From: a virus
Taxonomy: Duplodnaviria > Heunggongvirae > Uroviricota > Caudoviricetes
Strand: one strand, 5' to 3'
Length of the DNA: 21,565 nucleotides
Virus record (IMG/VR): IMGVR_UViG_3300048503_000086
Shown: positions 2,001-20,458 of the stretch, piece after piece
Position numbering within the stretch: the first letter of the stretch is position 1
Layout: every line of letters begins with the position of its first letter
The notes under the pieces: generated by a model
What the model was told of the DNA's origin: nothing
The model's database searches: none
The model's input: only the letters and a program-made list of their open reading frames with translations
Program-made: the position numbers and the translations under genes

Positions 2001-3688
2001 GGTTGCAACCGCCGCTGCGCGCTACCGCGCATTACGCAGTTTGCCCATAGTTACGCAATAATAACTCTTATCGGGATGATGAGGACATAAAGGCGGGCTC
2101 CAGGGTAAAACATTGAAATGTGTTACGAATGTTTCAGTGTCCTACCACAGGAGCCCGAGCGATGATTATCGAGATTGAGGATCGGTTTTGCAAGGTGGCG
2201 AAGGTGTTTTCAGAGGTGCTAAGCAAAGTCCAGCGTGCGGCCGAACGGGGCGATGCGGTGCATGAGGTTGAGGAGATGACTTGGAGGGGCCTGATCGAAA
2301 CGGGCCGCGAAACCGTCGTCGCGTACATCAAGGAGCAGGAGGAAAAACTCCCGCGACCAGAAGTGATCGAACACGAGGGGAAGACGCTTCACCGGTTGCC
2401 CGAGCAACGTACGCGGCCGTATGTTTCGGCCTTCGGCCCGACGCCGTTCCGACGTGACGTCTACGCCACGCGAGAAACGCAACGCCAGGAGGTGGTGCCG
2501 TTGGACGCGAAACTTGGAATGCCGGAGAGCGATACGTCGTACCTGTTGCAGAAGTGGAGTGGCTCGCAGTTTGTGAAGGAATCGTACAAGGAATCGCGGG
2601 GCACACTGCTGGGAATCCTCGGCTTTGCTCCGTCGGTCAACTGCCTGGAAGATATCGCTACGGCGGCGTCCGAGCATGCCGATGCCTACTTCGCGCAACA
2701 GGAACCGGTTGATCTGACGACGGAGGAGGAGATCCTTGTCGCCACGAGCGATTGCAAAGGTGTGCCGATGCGACAGGTGGACGCGCCGCAGAAGAAGCAG
2801 GACGCGGACGTACCGCGAAGGAAACGGCTGAAGAAGGGTGAGAAGAACGGCCAGAAGCGGATGGCGTGCGTCGGCGGTGTCTACTCGGTGGCCCCGTTTC
2901 GTCGCACGATCGAGGATGTGCTCAATGAGATCCTTCGCAAAGAAAAGCAGGAACAGCGGCCCAAACCGCAGAACAAGCGACTACGGGCCGTCTTGACTCG
3001 CGAAGTTGACGGCGAGGAAGTCAACGCCAAGGATGTTGTCTTCGACTGGCTTGCCAAGGAACTGCAGCAGCGCGATCCGCACGAGCGCCGGACGGTCGTA
3101 GCGGTCATGGACGGCGAAACGAAGCTTCGCGACTTGCAGGAACTGAAGATCAGCCGGGCGATCGGCATCTTGGACATCTGGCACGTGACCGAATACTTAT
3201 GGGAACTGGCCTACTGTTTTTACCGCGATGGGAGTGATGAGGCGGAAGCGTTCGTTGAAACTTATCTGCGAAAGCTGCTCGAAGGCAACGTCAACCGCGT
3301 AGTTGGCGGCATTCGCCAAATGGCGACCAAACGTGACTTGCCGAACCACAAATGGGAGAAGGTCGAGGATTGTCTGAGCTACCTCGCGGCGCGGGCTGAA
3401 TACATGAAGTATGACGAGTACCTGGCCGCCGGCTACCCGATTGGCAGCGGCGTCGTGGAGGGTGCTTGCCGTCACTTGGTGAAGGATCGGATGGAACAAG
3501 CCGGCATGCGTTGGCGGATCGCTGGCGCCCAGGCGATTCTCAGCCTACGAAGCATCTACGTCAACGATGACTGGGATGCGTTCCATGCCGATCGAATCCA
3601 AACAGAACAACGCAAATTGTACCCCTACAAGAAACGCTTGCACGCTACCCTAAACTGCGCAACTTAACGCGATCCAGAGGTTGCAACC
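2001..3688 (+). mobile_element. ISKra4-family insertion sequence, 1688 bp
   Basis: Both ends are GGTTGCAACC followed inward by N7-CGCG(C/T)TA. 9-bp direct repeat TCTGGATTT at 1992-2000 and 3689-3697. Confidence 0.9.
2162..3667 (+). CDS. ISKra4-family DDE transposase (501 aa from ATG 2162)
   Basis: AGGAG RBS upstream of 2162. Motifs ATSDCKGVPM, VMDGE, LDIWHVTEYLW and GSGVVEGACRHLVKDRMEQAGMRW. Frame intact. Confidence 0.88.
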   Translation: MIIEIEDRFCKVAKVFSEVLSKVQRAAERGDAVHEVEEMTWRGLIETGRETVVAYIKEQEEKLPRPEVIEHEGKTLHRLPEQRTRPYVSAFGPTPFRRDVYATRETQRQEVVPLDAKLGMPESDTSYLLQKWSGSQFVKESYKESRGTLLGILGFAPSVNCLEDIATAASEHADAYFAQQEPVDLTTEEEILVATSDCKGVPMRQVDAPQKKQDADVPRRKRLKKGEKNGQKRMACVGGVYSVAPFRRTIEDVLNEILRKEKQEQRPKPQNKRLRAVLTREVDGEEVNAKDVVFDWLAKELQQRDPHERRTVVAVMDGETKLRDLQELKISRAIGILDIWHVTEYLWELAYCFYRDGSDEAEAFVETYLRKLLEGNVNRVVGGIRQMATKRDLPNHKWEKVEDCLSYLAARAEYMKYDEYLAAGYPIGSGVVEGACRHLVKDRMEQAGMRWRIAGAQAILSLRSIYVNDDWDAFHADRIQTEQRKLYPYKKRLHATLNCAT

Positions 3689-4146
3689 TCTGGATTTCAC
3701 TATGGAAGACACCTTCTCGGACGATTTTGCTGAACGGGCCAGGGAGGTTGTTCAAACCTGGGTGGACGTGGAATACGCAAACCTCGATCGGCGGCGAAAC
3801 GGGGTTCGCAATTTCATTGTGCCGCTCAAGTACAACCGAAACGAGCCGCCCGATATGCGATGCACGGCTAAGTATGTGTCCCCGAGTCGAATAGTTACTG
3901 ATGATGAGCTTCGGCAAGCTCTGGCTCCCCTCAAGGAGTTGCTGGATTTTGTCGGCGGTGAATGTTACAAGCGCAAAGATATTCGTGGCGCAGCCTTGGC
4001 ATTGTTGCTCCACCGACACTTGTACCCCGACCAACTGCACCCGTACATGAACGAGATCGACAGTGAATTGGCCCTGGAGAAAGACGAGTTCCGACACGTA
4101 GGTGTGGAGCGGTTGGAGCAGGTCATCGACGCGGCCTTGGCAGCTA

Positions 4147-5340
4147 TACCTTACGCGGCGAGAAATGATCTGTTCTTGTCTCTTGGACCGGATTTTGGTA
4201 CATCATAGCCGGTTCGCCGATGGATCGGCGGACGAGGCATCGGTCCATGAGGCGAATGGAGGTCAAGGATGGCTTGGTTTCGAGTGCGTTTGTCGGAGGA
4301 AGAGCAGCGGATTGTGGGGGAGGAGCGATGGGAGCATCCCCACGAGACCGACACGACGGAAAATGGAGGTTCTGTGGCTGCTGCACCATGGACTTACCCG
4401 AGAACAAGTGGCGAAAATCGTCGGCATCGGATCGGCAACAGTAAAACGATACGCAAATGCATACCGGGACGGCGGCCTCGATGGTCTGCGGCGCTGGGCG
4501 AAAAAGGGGCCAACCGGTTCGTTGGAGGCCCATCGCGAATTGCTCGCCGAGTCGTTCCGGGAACGACCGGCTTCAAGTGTGGCGGAGGCGGCCGACCGCA
4601 TCGAGCAATTGACTGGGATTCGTCGCGGGCCGACGCAAACGCGGTTGTTCTTGAAGAAGCTCGGCTTGCGTTGGCAGCGGATGGCTGCCATTCCCGTTCC
4701 CCCCAAAAAAGTGTCGAGGAACACGTGGCGGAGCAGCAGCGATTTCTCGCTGACGAACTGAGGCCCCTGCTGGATGCCGCCCAGGCCGGTCAGGGGCACG
4801 TGTTCTTCGTTGATGCGGCGCACTTCGTGTTCGGCACCTTTCTGTGCTGCTTGTGGTCGTTCGGGCGGCTGTTTGTAAGGGCGGCGTCGGGGCGGCAGCG
4901 ATTCAACGTCTTGGGGGCTTGGAACGCGGTGACGCGGGAGTTGATTGCCGTGACAAACACCACGGTGGTCAACACGGAGACCATGTGCGAACTGCTGCGC
5001 GAGGTCGCGGTTCGTGGACTGGTGGGGCCGATCACGTTCGTGCTGGACAACGCCCGCTACCAACGAAACGCCACGGTGCAGGCTCTGGCCGCCCAATTGG
5101 GGATTACCTTGCTCTACCTGCCTTCGTACTCCCCGAACCTGAATCTGATTGAGCGGCTGTGGAAGTTCATCAAGCGAAAGGAACTTTACGGCAAGTACCA
5201 TGCCCGGTTCGACGACTTTCGGACCGCGATTCAGACGTGTCTGTCTCAAGTCAGTACGACACACCGGAATCCCCTCAAAAGCCTGATGACCCTCAACTTT
5301 CAGACATTCGAGAACGTATCACTATTGTCCGCGTAAGGTA
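4147..5340 (+). mobile_element. IS630-family insertion sequence, 1194 bp
   Basis: Terminal inverted repeat TACCTTACGCGG (4147-4158 and 5329-5340), flanked by TA at 4145-4146 and 5341-5342. Confidence 0.93.
4269..5336 (+). pseudogene. IS630 transposase in three frame segments (apparent extra base near 4335-4350; -1 shift at CCCCCCAAAAAAG 4699-4711)
   Basis: N-terminus MAWFRVRLSEEEQR in one frame, the HTH region (RRKMEVLWLL...TVKRY) in the +1 frame, and the DDE part (FFVDAAHF, VLDNARY, LPSYSPNLNLIERLWK) back in the first frame. Confidence 0.8.
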
Positions 5341-8969: not shown

Positions 8970-9641
8970 GATTGTAGAAGCATCGTTTGAGGCGGGGGGC
9001 GTGCCGCGATCGCAAGATCCGCACGCCTCCTGCTTTTCCTCCCCATGGTAATGTTGCGAAGCGACCGCGGCGCGCCACAAGCAGGGGGCGGGGTCCTATT
9101 TTCGCATTCTTGGGGCGGGGTTACAGGGCGGGGGGCTGCCCAGGCGGCGGGATGCGTCTCTGGTACTTCAAGCCGCGCAGCCGCTCTCCGTCCGGCAAAG
9201 TTCAGGACTCAGGAACTACCGCAAGAACGCGACCGGGCAGTATGCCGGCTGGCACTCGAACGCCCAGCTTCTCGGCAAACTGCTGCCTGGGGACCGCATG
9301 TGGATGGTCACGTCGGGCAAGGCCCTTCAGCAGGAGGCCGAACAGGCGGGGTTCTTGGTGGCGGTATGGCAGGTGGCGGAGGCCCTGGGGAATCCGGGCG
9401 ATGATCCGACCTACCCCAAGGATCGCTACCGCTACCGGGTCGTGCCAAACGAGGGGGAATCCATTACACTGAATGAGCCGGTGCCGGTGGACCACATCCT
9501 CCGGCCGGCGCGAGGTAGCAAGGCCGTGTCCATCGGACGGTACTTGCAGGGACCAAGAAGACTGGATGAATCAACCATCCGCCTCCTGCGTGTGGCCGCG
9601 GGGCCGGATATGGCAATCAAGTGGTTGAAAGGAAATCGAGC

Positions 9642-12437
9642 ATGAGCATCCTGAAACCGTGGCGTCAAGTCGCCACCCCGCACGCTGACATCCGCCAGGG
9701 CAAGTTCGACACTTCGGTCTTCGCCGCCGACCTGGGCGAAGTGCTGGCCGGGCGCGGGGCCGTCGATTACCGCGACGCCTGCACCTTCTTCTCCAAGACC
9801 TACCTGACGGAAGGGCTAACCCAACTGGTCATCGACGTGATGCAGCGGTTGGCCGGCTCGGGCAAGACCGAGGCGGTCATCCAGCTTCAAACGGCTTTCG
9901 GCGGGGGCAAGACGCATACCCTGTTGACCCTCTACCACCTGCTGACCAGCCCGAACCCGGTCGCCAAGCTGCCGGAAATCCAGGCTTTGCTCGCCGCCGC
10001 CGGCCTCAAGCAGATTCCCACCGCCCGGGTGGCCTGCCTGGTCGGGACCGCGCTCAACGCGACTGCCGATCGAACCTTCTGGGGCGACCTGGCTTGGCAG
10101 CTTGGCGGCGAGCGGCTCTACGCCAAGCTGGCCAAGTGCGACGAGCAGAAGGTCTCGCCGGGCACCAATCTCCTGGGCGAAGTGTTGGCCGAGGCCGGCC
10201 CGTGCCTGATCCTGCTCGATGAAGTCCTGGCCTACCTGCTCAAGGCCGGTGGGGTCAAGGTCGGGGAGAGCACCCTGCGCGGCAACACCCTCACGTTCCT
10301 GCACGAATTGGGGATCGCCGTGGCCAACTGCCCTACGGCCTGCATGATCGCCACGCTCACCAGCCAGCTTGCCGAGTACATGGACGAGGGCGGCGAGCGG
10401 GCCTACACGTCGCTGGAAAAGGCGCTGGGACGGGTGGAGAAGGTCCGGCAGACCGTCGTGGGCGCTGAGATTTACGAGGTCATTCGCCGCCGCCTGTTCG
10501 AGAACCTCGGCGACCCGGCCGACCATCGCGCCGCGGCCGAGGCGTACTGGCAGGTCTACCGGCAGCTTGGCGAGGACGTGCCCTCGGGCTGCCGCGAGCC
10601 GTCTTATCGGGACGAGATGATCCGGGCCTACCCGTTCCACCCGGAGTTGATCTCCGTGCTGTACGAGCGATGGGGGTCGATCCCCGAGTTCCAGCGGACC
10701 CGCGGCGTGCTCCGGCTGCTCGCCGATGTTATCAGCAACCTCTATCAAGGGAAAGACAACGATCCCCTGATCCAGAGCGGGTCGGTGAACCTCGGCGCGT
10801 CGGCCGTGCGCGGCGAGTTGGTCAAACACACGGGCTACGGCAGCGTTTTTCACGGCGTCATCGAGAGCGACATCTCCGGCACCCACGCCAAGGCTCCTGA
10901 GATCGACCGGCAGCTTGGCAGTGAGTATGCCAAGGAGAGCGTGTCGGAAAAGCTCGCCCGGTCGATCTTCATGTACTCGTTCAGCGGCGGACAGCAGCGC
11001 GGGGCCACCCTGCCGCAGTTGCGATTGGCCGTGCTCAACCCCGAGATGGCCCCGCCGTTCGTCTCCGACTCGCTGGACCGCATGACGAAGCGGCTCTGGT
11101 TCCTCTATCAAGACAGCGGGCTCTACCGGTTCGACTCGCGGCCCAACCTCAACCGCATCCTGGTAGACCGGGAGGAAATGGTCCGTTCCGAGCCGGATAA
11201 GGTCAAGGAGTTTGCCAAGAAGACGCTCAACGATTTGATCGGCGACGCCGCTTTTCGCGTCTACCGCTATCCCGAGGAAGACCGCGACGTAGCTGACGAG
11301 CCACGGCTGAGTCTCGTTGTGCTGGACCTGCACCAGGTTGCCTCTGAAGATGAAATGCCCAAGGCGACCGAGGATTTCGTCACGGGCATCCTAAAGCAAC
11401 ACGGCAAGGGGTTCCGCAAGTACGCCAACGTGCTTGTTTTCCTAGCCCCCGACCAGCAGCGGGCTTCGGAAGTCACCGACGCTGCCCGGACGCTGATGGC
11501 CCTGCGAAACGTGGACGAAGACAAGGCGACGAAGAAACAGTTGTCGGAGGAGCAACTCAAAGACCTGGCCCAGCGCCTGAAAGAGGCCGAGGCCCGCCTG
11601 CCGGCGGCCCTGACGACGGCCTACCGGATCGTCCTGGTGCCCGCAGAGAAGAAGACCCTGCGGGTATTCGACATGGGGATTTCCAAGTTCAGCGGTCCAA
11701 GCACGTTGAGCAGCAAGGTCTTGGAGAAGTTGATCGACGAACAGATTCTCAAGGGGTTGGACCCGAAGATACTTATCGGCGAACGATTCGCGCTCTGGCC
11801 CGAGGACCAGGAAATGGTCAACGTGCGAACGCTGGCCGACTACTTCACCCAACTGACGCACCTGCCCCGACTGCTGGGACCGGACGTGCTGCCAGCCTGT
11901 CTGGCACAGGGCGTCCACCGAGGACTGTTCGGCTACGCTCTCGGCGACAGCGAGAAGAGGCAGTTCGATACCATCTACTATAAGGACAAGTCCATCACCG
12001 CCACGGATTGCCAGATCATCGAGTCGGCATGGCTGCTCCGGCCGAAGGTGGCCGAGGCGCTCATGCCGAAGCCGGAGCCGGCGACGGTGCCGACAACCGG
12101 AGGCGGCGGCACTGGTGTCGTTGGTGACGGCGGCGTTCCGACTCCCGGAGATGGCGAGGAGCCCTGGGCACCGGGCGGCGGGGGTGGCGTGCAGATCGTC
12201 GAGGGCGAGCGCCGGCTGAACAAGGTCCGCATCGAGATGAAGAACCTCCCCTGGGAGAATTGGAACGACATTTACAACGAGGTCATCGACCCCTTGGCCC
12301 AAGAAGGGGCCGAGGTCCGTTGCGACGTGATCGTCGTCGCCAAGGGCGAGGCGGCGATCCGTGAGAACACGATTGAATTGGGTATCAAGGAATCCCTTGC
12401 CCAGCGAGGCATTCAAGCGGATATTCAGACGGGGTGA
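9642..12437 (+). CDS. DUF499-family AAA+ ATPase of a restriction-like defence system
   Basis: N-terminus KPWRQVATPHADI...FAADL, Walker A TAFGGGKTH, Walker B LILLDE, and YPFHPEL...FQRTRGVLRLLA. ATG 9642 is coupled to the upstream stop. Confidence 0.92.
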   Translation: MSILKPWRQVATPHADIRQGKFDTSVFAADLGEVLAGRGAVDYRDACTFFSKTYLTEGLTQLVIDVMQRLAGSGKTEAVIQLQTAFGGGKTHTLLTLYHLLTSPNPVAKLPEIQALLAAAGLKQIPTARVACLVGTALNATADRTFWGDLAWQLGGERLYAKLAKCDEQKVSPGTNLLGEVLAEAGPCLILLDEVLAYLLKAGGVKVGESTLRGNTLTFLHELGIAVANCPTACMIATLTSQLAEYMDEGGERAYTSLEKALGRVEKVRQTVVGAEIYEVIRRRLFENLGDPADHRAAAEAYWQVYRQLGEDVPSGCREPSYRDEMIRAYPFHPELISVLYERWGSIPEFQRTRGVLRLLADVISNLYQGKDNDPLIQSGSVNLGASAVRGELVKHTGYGSVFHGVIESDISGTHAKAPEIDRQLGSEYAKESVSEKLARSIFMYSFSGGQQRGATLPQLRLAVLNPEMAPPFVSDSLDRMTKRLWFLYQDSGLYRFDSRPNLNRILVDREEMVRSEPDKVKEFAKKTLNDLIGDAAFRVYRYPEEDRDVADEPRLSLVVLDLHQVASEDEMPKATEDFVTGILKQHGKGFRKYANVLVFLAPDQQRASEVTDAARTLMALRNVDEDKATKKQLSEEQLKDLAQRLKEAEARLPAALTTAYRIVLVPAEKKTLRVFDMGISKFSGPSTLSSKVLEKLIDEQILKGLDPKILIGERFALWPEDQEMVNVRTLADYFTQLTHLPRLLGPDVLPACLAQGVHRGLFGYALGDSEKRQFDTIYYKDKSITATDCQIIESAWLLRPKVAEALMPKPEPATVPTTGGGGTGVVGDGGVPTPGDGEEPWAPGGGGGVQIVEGERRLNKVRIEMKNLPWENWNDIYNEVIDPLAQEGAEVRCDVIVVAKGEAAIRENTIELGIKESLAQRGIQADIQTG

Positions 12438-13095: not shown

Positions 13096-13971
13096 ATGGA
13101 CTTCAACACCTACACCACGATGCGTGACTGGACTCGGCGGGTCTCGCCAGGGGATCGCTTCGCCCAGGACATCGACCAGTTCTACAAGCGGGCAATGGAC
13201 GATGCGGTCAAGGTGCGTTCCGCTCAATTCTTTGCCCAACTCATCAACGAACGGGACTGGGAGAAGGCTCGGAGGCCCTACTACAACCTGTGGCCGTCAA
13301 TCATCCCGATGCTCACCCGGCTGGACCTGGACCTTGATTCCGAGTTGATCCGGCTCCCATTGCCGGCCCTCTGCGTCCGTTTTCCCAAAGACTCGGCGAA
13401 GAACCCGCTCAAGTTCGATTGGAAGGGGGATGAGGTTTCGGTCCGTTGTATCATGATGGGGGACATGAACCAAGGCGAAGGTATTTCCGTGCTGATCGAC
13501 GTGGGCGAATTGGTGGACGAAATCGGGGTGCCGGTCTACAGCTACCGTAACTTTCCGCGCAAGCCCGGCTTGACCGTCCAGCAATCGGTAGCCAGCCTTG
13601 GAAGGAACGTCTTTGCCGACCTGGGCATCCAAGTCCCGGATTCCCTGGTCATGGACTGCGTGCGCCTGTGCTGCTCCCTTTGTCTGTTGGAAAACGACCC
13701 CGAGATCATTTCTCCCGATGTCCTGGCCGACGACCGGGCCAAGTACGAGGCCACCGGCGACCAGAAGTTCGTGGACAAGGCTCACCGGCGTGGCAAGGTC
13801 GGCTGGGATGTGGGGAAACATATCGAAGTCATCCCGCACTACAGAAGGCCGCACATGACTCTCGTTTGGACCGGGCACGGGCGGGCGACGCCTCGGGTGG
13901 TGCCCAGGCGGGGAAGTGTTGTCCATCGGGAGGCGGTGGAGAAGTTGCCGAGCGGGTTTGAGGGAGGGTGA
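13096..13971 (+). CDS. Hypothetical phage/MGE-type protein with a C-terminal PHYRRPH motif
   Basis: 291-aa ORF with AGGCGG upstream; the C-terminus reads IPHYRRPHMTLVWTGHGR. Confidence 0.75.
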   Translation: MDFNTYTTMRDWTRRVSPGDRFAQDIDQFYKRAMDDAVKVRSAQFFAQLINERDWEKARRPYYNLWPSIIPMLTRLDLDLDSELIRLPLPALCVRFPKDSAKNPLKFDWKGDEVSVRCIMMGDMNQGEGISVLIDVGELVDEIGVPVYSYRNFPRKPGLTVQQSVASLGRNVFADLGIQVPDSLVMDCVRLCCSLCLLENDPEIISPDVLADDRAKYEATGDQKFVDKAHRRGKVGWDVGKHIEVIPHYRRPHMTLVWTGHGRATPRVVPRRGSVVHREAVEKLPSGFEGG

Positions 13972-15033
13972 ACATGAAGTCCTTTTGCCAGCCGCCTAGA
14001 TTGCGCCCTCGTAACCCAGGGCTAGGCGGCGGCCAGGCAGGATGTGATGAGATCCGCTTCCCTTGTCCAGTCCCTTCCGAGTCGGTAAACTGTCAAAGTG
14101 TCCGGGCTTCCGCCCGTTCGTGCGGTGGAAGCCCGGTTACAGGCCATAGCAACATCGCTACTTTCGTACCCCCATTTGCAAGGGTGACCCATATAGCGTA
14201 GAGTATCAGTGACAACTTGAATTGACGCGCGTGCGTCAAGTTTCTGCTTCCCGAAAAACGACCAACCTGAGTCTGCGGACTCTTGAACAGATGAAGCAGT
14301 GCTTGGACCGCGCCCCTGCATGGGGGCGTCGGCCGAGTGCTGTTCATCTGTGCCCCTTGGTCGGGGTTTCGGGAGCAGCCTTGGTTGTGCGCCACGAGGC
14401 GCACAGATGGAATGAGTGAATGGCCCTCAAGGCCCGTCACTCCGCTGCTCGTTCAGGCGGGCGGCGCGTTGTTGGGACGTAGCTGCGGGCCGATGCTGGC
14501 TCGCGGTGAAAGAGCTGTCCCTGAAAGGTACTGGTGAGGCGCGAGGCAAACCGCCAAGAGGCCAGGCTTGACGAAGAAGTGACATGGTGAGTAACAGCGA
14601 AGCGGGTTTCAACCCACGGGAAACTGCTCCCCCTCCTCGTAATACTTTTGCCTAGCCTTGCAGGTAGCGGAGCAAGGATATACGGGGAGGCGATCGCGTT
14701 TCGACGTAAGAAGAAACGACCGAACCTGGTCAGAACCAATGCCAGGCCAAAGGATGCAACAGGCCACCTGTTTACCCTGCTGCCGATCGGGATTCCGCAG
14801 AGCGCGGCTCGGGTTGGTCTTTAACCGCCACCTAACTCACTTCGCAGAGTCCGTCTGTGTGAACGTGGGAGGCTTCTCGGGGAATGCCAAGGCGAGCAGT
14901 CCGCCGATGACCACGAGAAGCGTCGGAGCCGCCGTAGTAGTCCGAGGCTGGGAAAGCCAGCCACATGGCGAAGGGCGGCAGTCTTTTGGATTTTCGGCGC
15001 AGAGGTCACCGGATGGGATTCGGAGGCATCTCC

Positions 15034-15386
15034 GTGAATGTCGGTGAAATGCAACGAAAGCTGAGCCAGTGGGCGGAACAGCGACTGGAGGAGTTGGAGT
15101 ATCCGCTGTTTGTAGGGCGGAAAGACCTGCGACTTCACGACCTGTACCACCTGCTCTATGACGGAACGTGGCTGCGTCAAGCCCATGAACACGTTTGCCG
15201 CAACCGTGGGAGTCGAACCGCGGGATGCGACGGCCTGAACATGGGCGTGTTTAACGCCGACCTGGAGAATCAACTTTCCAAGTTGGCGGAACAACTGCGG
15301 ACGCAGACGTTCCGGCCACATCCCGTGCGACGGGTGTACATTCCCAAGAAGAACGGTAAGCTCCGTCCCCTGGGAATTCCGACGGT
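15034..15386 (+). pseudogene. ltrA: Group II intron RT/maturase, N-terminal fragment (RT0-RT2)
   Basis: GGAGG RBS and GTG start. Sequence MNVGEMQRKLSQWA...GSRTAGCDG...PVRRVYIPKKNGKLRPLGIPTV ends at the recombinase element. Confidence 0.88.
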
Positions 15387-15404
15387 ATAGGCATAATGCA
15401 CTCC

Positions 15405-17486
15405 TTACAATGAGCGTTGGGATTGTTGGCTGCGACTCTTCTGGATTCGGGTGGATTTCTCCGCCCATCGCTGCAATCGGCATTCCGTTTCCGGATCGAG
15501 GGTGATCCACAACGCGGAACCCCGGTTACGGCGGCGGGCCAGGACAACGCCACGTTCGATCCAGTAATACACGACGCCTGGGCTGACATCGAGTTTCTCA
15601 GCCACCTGGGCTACCGTCAGTTCTTCCGGTCGCTTCAGCGTCGGGGCTGAAATCCGATGCTTGTAGCGAATCCAGGCGATCATCGACTGCGTAAAAGACT
15701 TGCCCTTCGCGCTGCGGAAGCCCTGCTGGTTGAGCGTGTCGGCGATCTCCGCGTCGGCCTTCTCCGTCGCCAACGATCGGACCTGCTCCACAAGATCTTC
15801 AGGATACCGCAGCCGATCAGCGATGGGAAGCGGCCGGTTCACGGCGATGTCTTCGCAGGCACCTCCTTGCCAACGAACGTGGAGCAGGACCTGTCGAGGC
15901 TCGGTCAGCCGTTCGACCGTGATGTCCTTCACCAGCAATCGCAGCATCCTCTTCTTGTCCTTGGGGGGCGTCGTGGGGGCATTCCATAAACGCGGAAACT
16001 CTTTGGCCAAAGCCAGAATCTTCGCCCGTTGCTCCACTGTGACGACCAAGCCATGGCTGCGTTGGAAATCGGCGAACTCCTGTCGTATCTCCTCCAGGCG
16101 GCTGAGGGCCTCGTTCCAACGTTGCTCCAAGGAAGCCGCGACGAGACGGTTGGCCGGGTCCACCTGCTCGTAGCGCCGCTGGGCGAGCTGGGCCTCATAC
16201 TCCGCGCGCTGGAGCCGCATCCGCCATTGCCCCTGGGAGGCATCGTCACGTTTCTCCAGTTCCTGGAGCACGTCCAGAGAAAGGTGGAGCTGATCGGAGT
16301 TGACCACCTGTACGACGCGGTTAGATACCGCCTGGTCGATCAGACCGCAGGGAATGCTCATGCAGGACTTGCGTGAACGGCCTTGCCGCTTACGCCAGTT
16401 ACATTCATAAACCGGATAGATGCCGCCGTTGCCTTGGTAGCGCGGCGTTAAGCGACGGCCACAAACACGACACACCAAGAGCCCTTGCAAAAGGGCCAAA
16501 CCCTCGCGTGCCGGTCCGCTCAAGAGCGTGTCCTCCCCGTTCGTGCGGTTGCGTTCGAGGGTGTCCAGATTGTGCAGGTATTCGTCAAAGGAAAGGTAGC
16601 CCGGGTGGTGGTTCTGGATCTCCACCAGCCACGCGGGCCGAGGCATCGCTTTTACCCGTGAGCGGACCTCGCCGTTGGCAAGGACGTGCTTGACACAACG
16701 ATAACGGCCAAAGGCATAGACTCCTGCATACGCCGGGTTTTTCAATACGCTCCGAACCCGATCGTCCGTCAAGTGTCCCCAGAAGATTCGGCCGTTCCAA
16801 ACGCCGCCGTAGGCCCGCTTGGGGAACTTCAGCCCCCGCGCTGCGAACGCCTGGGCCACGGCATACGCGCTGCCTGTTTCACGGAACAGGGCAACCAACA
16901 ACTCCACGGCCCCGCGCACCTCGGCGTCAGGGTCCAGCACGATTGCGTTGGCGTCATCATAACACAACCCGACGGGCAACGGGAAACGCAACTCACCCTT
17001 CTTGGCTTTGTTCAGCTTGCCGCCCTGGAGGCGGACGTGGAGGAAATGCAACTCCGCCTGAGACATCTGGGCCTTCATCCCCAGCAGGAGGCCATCGTTG
17101 AAATCCGCCGGATCGTAGCAACCATCCTCGTCGATGATCAGCGTGCCGGTCAATGCACAGATCTCGATCAAGCGGTGCCAGTCGGCGTTGGATCGCGCCA
17201 GGCGTGAAGCCTCCAAAGCAAACACGGCACCCACTTCTCCCAGCGAGACTTCGGCTATCAACTTCTTGAAGTCGTCTCGGCCGCTGCTGGTCGCCCCCGA
17301 GATTCCCAGATCCCGGTCCAGGATGCGCATACTGGTTGCTGGCCATCCCAGCGAGATTGCCTTGTCCTTCAAGGCATACTGCCGTTCGGTGCTCTCCTGA
17401 TGGTTCCGCACCTGCCCCATCGTCGATTGACGCACGTAGACATACGCCGTCTTCTGCCGGTGGGATAACGTCACCTGGGTCGTCAT
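15405..17486 (-). CDS. Large serine recombinase (resolvase + recombinase + Zn-ribbon + coiled coil + C-terminal HTH), 693 aa
   Basis: Catalytic AYVYVRQST and EASRLARS, Zn ribbon LVCRVCG...YEC, C-terminal HTH ELTVAQVAEKLDVSPGVVYYWI. Frame intact. Confidence 0.93.
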   Translation of the reverse strand: MTTQVTLSHRQKTAYVYVRQSTMGQVRNHQESTERQYALKDKAISLGWPATSMRILDRDLGISGATSSGRDDFKKLIAEVSLGEVGAVFALEASRLARSNADWHRLIEICALTGTLIIDEDGCYDPADFNDGLLLGMKAQMSQAELHFLHVRLQGGKLNKAKKGELRFPLPVGLCYDDANAIVLDPDAEVRGAVELLVALFRETGSAYAVAQAFAARGLKFPKRAYGGVWNGRIFWGHLTDDRVRSVLKNPAYAGVYAFGRYRCVKHVLANGEVRSRVKAMPRPAWLVEIQNHHPGYLSFDEYLHNLDTLERNRTNGEDTLLSGPAREGLALLQGLLVCRVCGRRLTPRYQGNGGIYPVYECNWRKRQGRSRKSCMSIPCGLIDQAVSNRVVQVVNSDQLHLSLDVLQELEKRDDASQGQWRMRLQRAEYEAQLAQRRYEQVDPANRLVAASLEQRWNEALSRLEEIRQEFADFQRSHGLVVTVEQRAKILALAKEFPRLWNAPTTPPKDKKRMLRLLVKDITVERLTEPRQVLLHVRWQGGACEDIAVNRPLPIADRLRYPEDLVEQVRSLATEKADAEIADTLNQQGFRSAKGKSFTQSMIAWIRYKHRISAPTLKRPEELTVAQVAEKLDVSPGVVYYWIERGVVLARRRNRGSALWITLDPETECRLQRWAEKSTRIQKSRSQQSQRSL

Positions 17487-17616
17487 GGCACACCTCCTGG
17501 GCTGGGGAAAGAGGAGGTGTGTCGGCCAGATAAGCCTGGATCATATTGGCCACGAGAATGGCCAGGGCCTGAGTGTCGATCGGTTCGCTGTCGGGTGCCA
17601 TGGTTGTACCGGACAC
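17483..17616 (-). CDS. Probable short coding segment upstream of the recombinase (MSGTTMAPDSEPIDTQALAILVANMIQAYL...); 3' end uncertain
   Basis: AGGAGG RBS before GTG 17616 and an amphipathic helix. The frame has no stop at the recombinase start and runs on as an overlapping frame to 16993. Confidence 0.35.
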
Positions 17617-17711
17617 GCCGCCTCCTGGTGAAGGCCCGCGCGCTGGCCGACCTTGCGGCAGGCCAACCGCCAGCCGAGTTCTGGTTCACCGACCGATCGG
17701 GACGGCAGTCT

Positions 17712-17741
17712 GTTATGCCCCAAAGCGATTTCATGGGTCAA
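17712..17741 (-). promoter_or_regulatory. Putative sigma70 promoter for the recombinase operon
   Basis: Minus strand TTGACC (17741-17736), 18-nt spacer, CATAAC (17717-17712). Confidence 0.5.
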
Positions 17742-17743
17742 GA

Positions 17744-18043
17744 TCACTTTCTGCTTCGTCTGAGAAGGGCGATCAGTTCCGCCAATTGACGAAGACAAAG
17801 GCCGTCGAGAATTGGCAACGGGCTGATACCCAACGCAGCCACGGGAGACGGATCGGCCCGGTCGGTCCATTCCCGCGGCACGGCAAACGTGCCGTGGGAA
17901 GTTCCTTGGAGGATCAGCGTTTCAATGCCCCGGACTCGCCGGAGCTTAAGGATCGGGAACTGCTGCCCCTTGAGAGGGTGGAACGGATGGGTGATCTCCG
18001 CCGATCCCGAAAGGGCGCTGGGGTGAGGTGCAGTTACCGGCGA
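17744..18043 (-). CDS. DUF5372/Y4bD-like ORF body lacking its own start; the start codon lies at 15394, across the att junction
   Basis: SAEITHPFHPLKGQQF...TFAVPREWTD pattern. Joins in frame to ATG 15394 when the element is circularised (103 aa). Confidence 0.72.
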   Translation of the reverse strand, partial: SPVTAPHPSALSGSAEITHPFHPLKGQQFPILKLRRVRGIETLILQGTSHGTFAVPREWTDRADPSPVAALGISPLPILDGLCLRQLAELIALLRRSRK

Positions 18044-18065
18044 CCGTGCCCACCATGGATCGCAT

Positions 18066-18580
18066 CCGGACAAGATCGGGCGAAGGTGTTTGCCCAAGTG
18101 GACCACTTTGCTTTCTGGCAAATGGCCTACTGGCTCGCAGGCAAGTACCGATGTTCCACCTCGAAGATCATGCGGCGGTTTTACCGACGTGTCGCCGGGT
18201 CCATGACCCTCGCCACCGACGATATCGCCCTTGATCCCATCAGGGTGATTTCACGTCGGCGTTTCCGCCTTCGCAGCTTCGACAATCCCTACACGACGCC
18301 AGGTGCCAAGCTGATCCGCTCGGAGCAGTTTGGTCTGGAACCGGGCTGGCAGGGGAACGAACGCAATCCCGGCGTGGAGGACCTTCGCCATCTGGTGCTG
18401 CAACGGGACCAATGGACCTGCCAGCACTGCGGCGAGGGAATCGACCCCTCCGATTACGAGATTGACCACATTCGTCCTGTCCGCAGGTTCAAGTCTGTGG
18501 CCGCGGCCACTTTTCTGGAGAACCTTCAGACTTTATGTGGCCCATGTCATCGGGCCAAAACTCAGGATTCCAAGAGACGG
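18066..18580 (+). pseudogene. ltrA: Group II intron IEP C-terminal fragment: end of maturase (X) domain plus HNH endonuclease
   Basis: AKVFAQVDHFAFWQMAYWLAGKYR, then CQHCG...EIDHIRPV...NLQTLCGPCHRAKT, directly upstream of domain V. Boundaries approximate. Confidence 0.85.
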
Positions 18581-18581
18581 A

Positions 18582-18673
18582 GAGCCGGATGCTTTGAAAG
18601 TTGCAAGTCCGGTTCGGAGGGGGGAGCGGTGGAAACGTGCCTCATGGGGTAACGCGCCCCGCTCCTACCTTAC
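18582..18673 (+). ncRNA. Group II intron domains V and VI
   Basis: 34-nt hairpin GAGCCGGATGC-TTTGAAA-GTTGCAAGTCCGGTTC with the AGC triad, followed by GGAGGGGG and a D6 stem ending CCTACCTTAC. Confidence 0.93.
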
Positions 18674-20389: not shown

Positions 20390-20458
20390 TACAGCCAACG
20401 GGAATCGAACTCGCATTGCCGGCTGGAAGCCGGTGTCCTGCCGTTAGACGATGGCTGT
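20390..20458 (-). tRNA. Atypical tRNA with a TCC (Gly) anticodon, about 2 nt short; possibly pseudo
   Basis: 7-bp acceptor ACAGCCA/TGGCTGT, D arm GTCT-AACGGCA-GGAC, T loop TTCGATT, anticodon arm CCGGC-TTCCA-GCCGG. No encoded CCA directly after the discriminator. Confidence 0.7.

Follow-up and report, generated by a model that had tools for sequence, protein, structure and literature searches.

A compact large serine recombinase element in the reverse transcriptase gene of a group II intron, and its probable specialisation on one conserved codon

The stretch of DNA considered here (the window) is the 21,565-nucleotide virus record IMGVR_UViG_3300048503_000086 of IMG/VR, assigned to the Caudoviricetes. 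It holds a group II intron whose reverse transcriptase (RT) gene is interrupted, within the codons of a conserved protein motif, by an element of 2,668 bp (15381-18048) that encodes a large serine recombinase (LSR) of 693 amino acids (aa) and a DUF5372 protein. The parts of this nested arrangement, in window coordinates, are as follows.

14387..18673, plus strand: host group II intron, 5' GUGCG (GTGCG at 14387) through domain VI; Rfam RF00029 (Intron_gpII) domain V/VI at 18580-18673, 56.9 bits
14965..15380, plus strand: RT N-terminal fragment, ending ...KLRPLGI plus bases 1 and 2 of the Pro codon
15379..15380: crossover dinucleotide (core) at the left junction, CC in the RT sense and GG in the LSR sense
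15381..15401, minus strand: arm P, 21 bp, GTGCATTATGCCTATACCGTC on the minus strand; arm, Shine-Dalgarno site and ATG conserved across the family
15405..17486, minus strand: LSR, 693 aa; Pfam Resolvase 4.4e-19, Recombinase 7.5e-14, Zn_ribbon_recom 3.8e-11
17487..17743: spacer of 257 bp; a DUF6788 gene is found at this place in 55 of 81 related elements and is absent from the window's clade
17744..18046 (and beyond), minus strand: DUF5372 gene body, Pfam DUF5372 2.5e-16, lacking a start codon inside the element
18028..18048, minus strand: arm P', 21 bp, CACGGTCGCCGGTAACTGCAC on the minus strand
18049..18050: core at the right junction, likewise CC in the RT sense
18051..18078, plus strand: degenerate stretch of 28 nt that reads PTMDRIRT, resembles the RT codons after the Pro, and replaces 840 nt of RT kept in a copy of the same locus (L094:2597-3436)
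18079..18652, plus strand: RT C-terminal remnant, comprising the tail of the X (maturase) domain and an HNH endonuclease domain (1.6e-09)

The host intron has the domains V and VI, the 5' GUGYG and the domain IV RT/maturase open reading frame (ORF) by which group II introns are recognised, with the RT core deleted in the window, and it aligns with an intact intron (L090) at 85% DNA identity. Both pieces of its RT match the intact RT P0124, which carries RVT_1, GIIM and HNH domains: the N-terminal fragment is 90% identical to residues 1-118, and the C-terminal remnant 80% identical to residues 397-583. The N-terminal ORF (14965-15390) has 141 aa and ends in ...KKNGKLRPLGIPTV, that is, KLRPLGIPTV followed by a stop; the start of the homologue (MNVGEM) maps to about 15034, as against the opening of the ORF at 14965.

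The alignment of the window to L090 stops exactly at the central dinucleotide, or core. The element is bounded by imperfect inverted arms of 21 bp each, which when joined form a near-palindromic 44-bp attachment site (attP). A preliminary description of this DNA had placed the left junction in the LGIPT codons of the RT, and CTG GGA ATT CCG ACG GTA TAG is indeed found at 15370-15389. The true junction is ATT CC^G (carets mark the crossover); 15381-15401 (GACGGTATAGGCATAATGCAC in the RT sense) is the element's own arm, and the 'T V stop' is thus element sequence that mimics the target. The right end, given there as 18075, is shifted to 18048, with the core at 18049-50; homology to the RT returns from 18079 on, in the tail of the X domain. 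In both arms the inner six bases (ACCGTC/GACGGT) are the same as the ...ACGGT half-site of the target, which makes the junction resemble a longer repeat; the core was mapped to 2 bp using copies, such as L010, whose target departs from the arm on both sides. Copies within one genome are 99-100% identical over 2,933-3,027 bp, with homology breaking sharply at both ends, where the flanks diverge. Sequence comparison shows the insertion to be conservative: apart from the 2-bp core nothing is duplicated, and the target keeps all its bases.

Written with the LSR on the plus strand, the family layout is flank - NN - arm P' ((C/G)ACGGTCAnCGCGAACTGCAC) - DUF5372 - DUF6788 (in most copies) - LSR - arm P (GTGCATTATGAAnnCACCGTC) - NN - flank, where NN stands for a dinucleotide that the two ends share in almost all resolved copies. 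Two exceptions, L021 and L062, pair a GC end with a GG end; the difference may be a point mutation, or it may record an integration event in which the cores were mismatched by one base, possibly the route by which the core, and with it the orientation, changes. Within arm P lie a conserved ATG (15394-15392 in the window) and, just before it, AAGGAG, which overlaps the LSR stop codon.

The LSR has the architecture of serine integrases, with PF00239 at residues 14-165, PF07508 at 193-311 and PF13408 at 332-391. An RQS motif lies near its N-terminus and, by analogy, catalysis would proceed through a putative phosphoserine. At the C-terminus there is an HTH_17/MerR-like helix-turn-helix (HTH), with an HTH_17 match of 4.5e-05 and 24.1 bits that falls below the 27-bit Pfam cutoff. 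Full-length homologues 85-92% identical to the window LSR were found; no NCBIfam model matched it above cutoff, the weak sub-cutoff matches being XisF and the cassette recombinases CcrC and CcrB. The second gene, DUF5372, comes into phase with the arm P ATG only once the ends of the element are joined; the joined ORF has 106 aa in the window, and the joined frame is open in 51 of 56 family elements. From this arrangement and by analogy with characterised LSRs, the DUF5372 protein would be made only from an excised circle. The model of its body (pLDDT, the predicted local distance difference test score, 82) suggests a small SH3/KOW-like barrel with a C-terminal helix. The clade that lacks DUF6788 includes L001, L002 and mostly Planctomycetota copies. 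In the window, an ORF in the spacer region (17483-17734, minus strand) was considered as a third gene and rejected, having no family match and a low-complexity composition. RefSeq labels the genes of the element merely as DUF5372, DUF6788 and 'recombinase family protein'.

A census of targets covered the 80 closest LSR homologue loci with flanking DNA, from metagenome-assembled genomes and isolates, in which the LSR is 56-89% identical to that of the window; LSR relatives in databases number in the thousands, of which about 80 loci were examined. The loci come from Planctomycetota, Acidobacteriota, Verrucomicrobiota, Pseudomonadota, Myxococcota, Chloroflexota, Bacteroidota and other phyla. In about 75 of the 80, a tblastn search with the RT N-terminal piece of the window found an RT N-terminal fragment that adjoins the element and ends at the identical residue. 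Among the flanks that could be read, 66 of 69 upstream and 55 of 60 downstream give a reconstructed site (flank, core, flank) that encodes the RT motif. This motif, K..G..R.LG(I/V)^P(T/C/A)(V/I/L)xD(R/K)..Q, is that of group II intron RTs, and the crossover falls at the first two bases of its Pro codon (...RPLGI^P). Wherever the flanks were long enough, excision in silico restored continuous RT frames of about 450-600 aa. Upstream flanks contained six types of Rfam group II D1-D4 models and downstream flanks domain V; past the core, RVT_1 continues from about profile position 15, with GIIM in four of five scanned flanks and HNH in two of five. On the evidence of these flanks, the recurrence of the junction across homologues is far beyond chance.

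The 72 unique target sites yield the consensus GGnnnnnnCGnCCnyTnGGnATn-CC-nACnnTnnnnGAyCGnnTnnnnCA for the target attachment site, attB. Its information follows a strict 3-nt periodicity and is near zero at most wobble positions; conservation is seen at the bases that the RT protein sequence dictates.

In serine integrases, recombination passes through a phosphoserine intermediate, integration takes its polarity from the central dinucleotide alone, and directionality is governed by a separate factor, the recombination directionality factor (RDF); no RDF was identified for the present element. Among the homologous loci, a GG core (in the LSR sense) goes with an RT antisense to the LSR (49 loci, the window included) and a CC core with an RT in the same sense (22 loci), a correlative rule that holds in all resolved RT-associated copies. 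A palindromic GC core occurs in one Acidobacteriota genome, where copies of one intron carry the element in both orientations (L040 vs L023); inverting all that lies between the cores turns one state exactly into the other. Over the LSR tree the core state changes at least seven times across well-supported branches, with GC-core copies near the switches. Read from the loci, this pattern matches the serine-integrase polarity rule acting on an attP with nearly equivalent arms.

Element and intron also have separate histories. Two pairs of 100% identical LSRs (L007/L009 and L010/L011) each occupy, within one genome, RTs that are 30-35% identical, and the medians over all pairs are 34% identity for the RT and 63% for the LSR. 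An unoccupied copy of the same intron in the L053 genome carries the exact 202-nt 'left flank - GG - right flank' sequence, which shows that insertion there was conservative and that the two junctions share one 2-bp core; the introns of L010 and L011 had no empty counterpart in their genome. Elements with the exact LSR protein of the window (at least 98.6% identical in nucleotides) are found in related samples beside four or more distinct RT genes, so the window lineage has moved recently. Whole intron-plus-element composites are also duplicated within genomes (L011/L012, L021/L023 and L013-L015). Of the L014 and L015 composites, otherwise 99.9% identical, one has an extra 2.2-kb insertion (L014:8472), another nested element, in the RT C-terminal part. 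In four loci with an identical LSR (L095, L096, L097 and L098), one flank is the window's intron and the other the RT N-terminus of a different intron; L097 and L098 have one flank in common and differ in the other.

We conclude, with a probability of roughly 0.88, that the insert in the window is an integrated copy of a compact mobile element of the insertion sequence (IS) type, with the LSR as its only enzyme and specialised on the RT motif of group II introns. That conserved RT DNA serves as attB, as the preliminary description had proposed, follows from the shared codon (nearly all of the 80 closest LSR homologues lie at the same codon of different introns' RTs), the identical LSRs in divergent RTs and the empty site. 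By analogy with characterised systems, the LSR would excise the element as a circle by recombining its two ends (attL x attR), restoring the RT codon, and the circle would join the ribosome-binding site and ATG of arm P to the start-less DUF5372 frame in arm P'. LSR dimers bound to attP and to an RT-motif attB would then pair in a synapse, cleave the core with a 2-nt stagger, and rotate before rejoining the strands. The insertion cuts the RT frame after motif 2 (in the window as ...LGIPTV-stop), so that the intron loses its own RT/maturase. For its part, the element gains a target that exists in many copies, is conserved from phylum to phylum and can be spared by the host. The earlier suggestion of a widespread, multicopy, non-essential landing pad thus fits the data, and so does inactivation of the host element, whose RT is truncated by the insertion; that the truncation favours the element through competition is a possible further step.

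Several observations weigh against this interpretation. Extracting element boundaries and tabulating targets, a check put forward at the outset, left only three cases apparently off target: the copies L075 and L008 lie in non-RT DNA (L008 with a GT core), and one flank of L070 is non-RT. By that tally, specificity for the RT motif is not absolute. In the aligned sites, the bases that the LSR reads in attB are inseparable by sequence from the coding constraint on the RT. Excision, circles and integration are steps that we infer from sequence and by analogy. The mixed flanks of L095-L098 may reflect homologous recombination between copies, which would rearrange genomes, or an assembly chimera across a 2.7-kb repeat. 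Finally, a fold search of the PDB with the DUF5372 model gave generic SH3/KOW/Tudor-like matches only, at E >= 0.03.

Could the preference for one codon be a matter of survivorship, with insertions of low specificity persisting only where they do no harm, for instance in a selfish intron's ORF? The host can do without intron RT genes, and the few copies outside RT genes (L075, L008) would suit such an account. It does not accommodate some 70 insertions at one dinucleotide of one codon, with no scatter over RT genes or other dispensable DNA, nor inner arm bases that match the target half-site (ACGGT), nor a core that is identical at both ends and predictive of orientation, and we regard it as very improbable. 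The duplicated composites (L011/L012, L021/L023, L013-L015) bear on a different account, as they could reflect retrohoming of intron and element together with RT supplied in trans: the LSR cassette might be cargo inherited in one intron lineage and spread only by retrohoming, its association with RT genes being one of common descent. As the sole route of spread this is already contradicted by identical elements in different Rfam intron classes with RTs 30-35% identical, by the occurrence of both orientations, by the known empty copy of the same intron and by element homology that ends exactly at the arms; we give it next to no credence.

A domesticated switch, by which host or intron would toggle the RT through reversible LSR excision in the manner of the skin element (sigK) or the XisF element (fdxN), likewise seems to us extremely improbable. 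Precise excision would restore the RT frame, and the weak NCBIfam matches of the LSR (XisF, CcrC, CcrB, all below cutoff) point the same way; against these stand an element that is multicopy, spread across phyla and lodged in unrelated and often decayed introns such as the window's, the want of any conserved host context, and behaviour that is a selfish element's.

Beyond the window, we think it slightly better than an even bet that these elements form an undescribed, phylum-spanning class of minimal LSR insertion elements for one RT codon, with a palindromic attP in which the inner arms copy the target, an orientation flipped by the core (CC, GC, GG) and a gene expressed from the circle only, whose composites with the intron may also retrohome with RT acting in trans. 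If this is true, a DNA parasite would ride the retromobility of the element it disables. Full-text searches of the literature on serine recombinases with group II introns, DUF5372, DUF6788 and y4bA/y4bD returned no description of the element, and it is absent from an LSR survey (PMC10083194) and from an intron-neighbourhood study (PMC7306698). The element adds a layer to the ecology of selfish DNA, being a DNA element of several phyla that resides almost only inside another selfish element and knocks out its RT, and it may limit the spread of group II introns in soil and sediment bacteria. It is also a natural example of a serine integrase for which amino-acid constraint defines the bases of attB, with every wobble position tolerated. 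The many natural pairs of attP and attB, with several cores, are material for studying how DNA is read and may possibly yield compact orthogonal integrases. A practical consequence is that the element's repeats of 2.5-3.5 kb break short-read assemblies.

In a cultured strain, Cupriavidus basilensis DSM 11853, plasmid pRK1-1 has the standard three-gene form (NZ_CP062805.1, about 381.3-384.2 kb), with flanks that read GKPGEFRNLGI^PSALDRFVQQ. More distantly, the element on plasmid pNPM3 of Nostoc sp. N6 (L092, NZ_CP026685.1 35121-42145) has an LSR 42% identical to that of the window, the same arm P and the same RT codon, and adds a Y4bD/Y4pK-family gene and a serine-rich passenger gene of 319 aa; the family is therefore able to carry cargo. 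A relative on Rhodococcus opacus pLPS8 (L093), 44% identical, has another gene set and no RT annotated alongside. The broader clade of DUF5372-linked LSRs comprises 446 plasmid records at less than 60% identity, mostly from rhizobia, with extra HTH and small genes.

In the window copy the RT core is missing. The same locus in L094 is 100% and 99.9% identical on either side and carries the same element, and its RT is intact past the core (PSIRDRIVQE...). The window's intron has lost these further 840 bp of RT since the element came to occupy it. No template for the 28-nt stretch at the joint was found in the window or in 99 loci, and the stretch is absent from L094 and all the others. We had considered a deletion into the X domain by the LSR at a pseudo-site, flush with the right end of the element, on the basis of an alignment to L002 at 28% identity; this idea is rejected, since the DNA alignments with L090 and L094 place 28 nt of non-X-domain sequence between core and joint.

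Some other features of the window surround the intron. Window positions 14280-14386 match L090:18-124, such that homology runs for about 107 nt upstream of the intron 5' end; both introns therefore lie in a similar exon context, and possibly share a homing site. Just upstream of the intron is an ORF of 291 aa (13096-13971), for which a sister contig carries a faint precomputed AcrVA2-like match. Farther upstream are a UPF0236-like ORF (a weak match) in the region 2120-5336, a DDE_3 transposase at 4269-5336 and a DUF499 ATPase of 938 aa at 9621-12437. On the other side of the intron, 20390-20458 is a tRNA gene of the minus strand.

Known systems resemble the element in part. Tn4451/Tn4453 (TnpX) and Tn5397 (TndX) are clostridial LSR transposons with resistance cargo, short GA-centred sites and relaxed specificity, and in Tn4451 the circle joint creates an expression signal. 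As in Tn4451 and Tn5397, the LSR here would be the sole transposase, acting through an excised circle and a 2-bp crossover with no target duplication. The joint would also resemble that of Tn4451, except that a whole gene rather than a promoter is split across it. Unlike these transposons, the element is 2.7-3 kb long, has no cargo and has a near-palindromic 44-bp attP, and its target is a single conserved coding motif. The DUF4368 domain that recombinases of the TnpX/TndX clade often carry has no match in the LSR, and the core is CC, GG or GC in a conserved target of 40-50 bp. The element works like Tn4451 and Tn5397 but is not a member of their group.

Serine integrases that interrupt genes, such as those of A118 in comK, SPbeta (SprA) in spsM, skin (SpoIVCA) in sigK and XisF in fdxN, move DNA of 10-130 kb into one host-gene site per genome. 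The present element would share with them recombination of attP with an attB inside coding sequence, precise restoration on excision and polarity set by a dinucleotide. It differs from them in that its target motif belongs to another mobile element, one present in many copies, and recurs in different intron classes and phyla, with variation tolerated at every wobble position. A small insertion sequence moved by a serine recombinase is likewise found in IS607, whose TnpA is a small serine recombinase (about 200 aa) in which a MerR-like DNA-binding domain at the N-terminus precedes the catalytic domain; it chooses targets with very low specificity and is usually accompanied by TnpB. The LSR described here is a 693-aa protein with an N-terminal catalytic domain followed by recombinase and zinc-ribbon domains, and no TnpB goes with it.

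Similar in strategy are elements that hunt other mobile elements: IS4321/IS5075 of the IS1111 family, which insert in the inverted repeats of the Tn21 family, the IS1111-attC elements and class C-attC introns found in integron attC sites, and twintrons. To our knowledge, none of these uses a serine recombinase or targets the coding motif of an intron RT. Like these hunters, the element would land where it is safe and sites are many, in a feature conserved in another mobile element. It is set apart from them by its enzyme, theirs being a DEDD transposase with a guide RNA, as in IS1111/IS110 targeting (PMC11187229), or an intron ribonucleoprotein.

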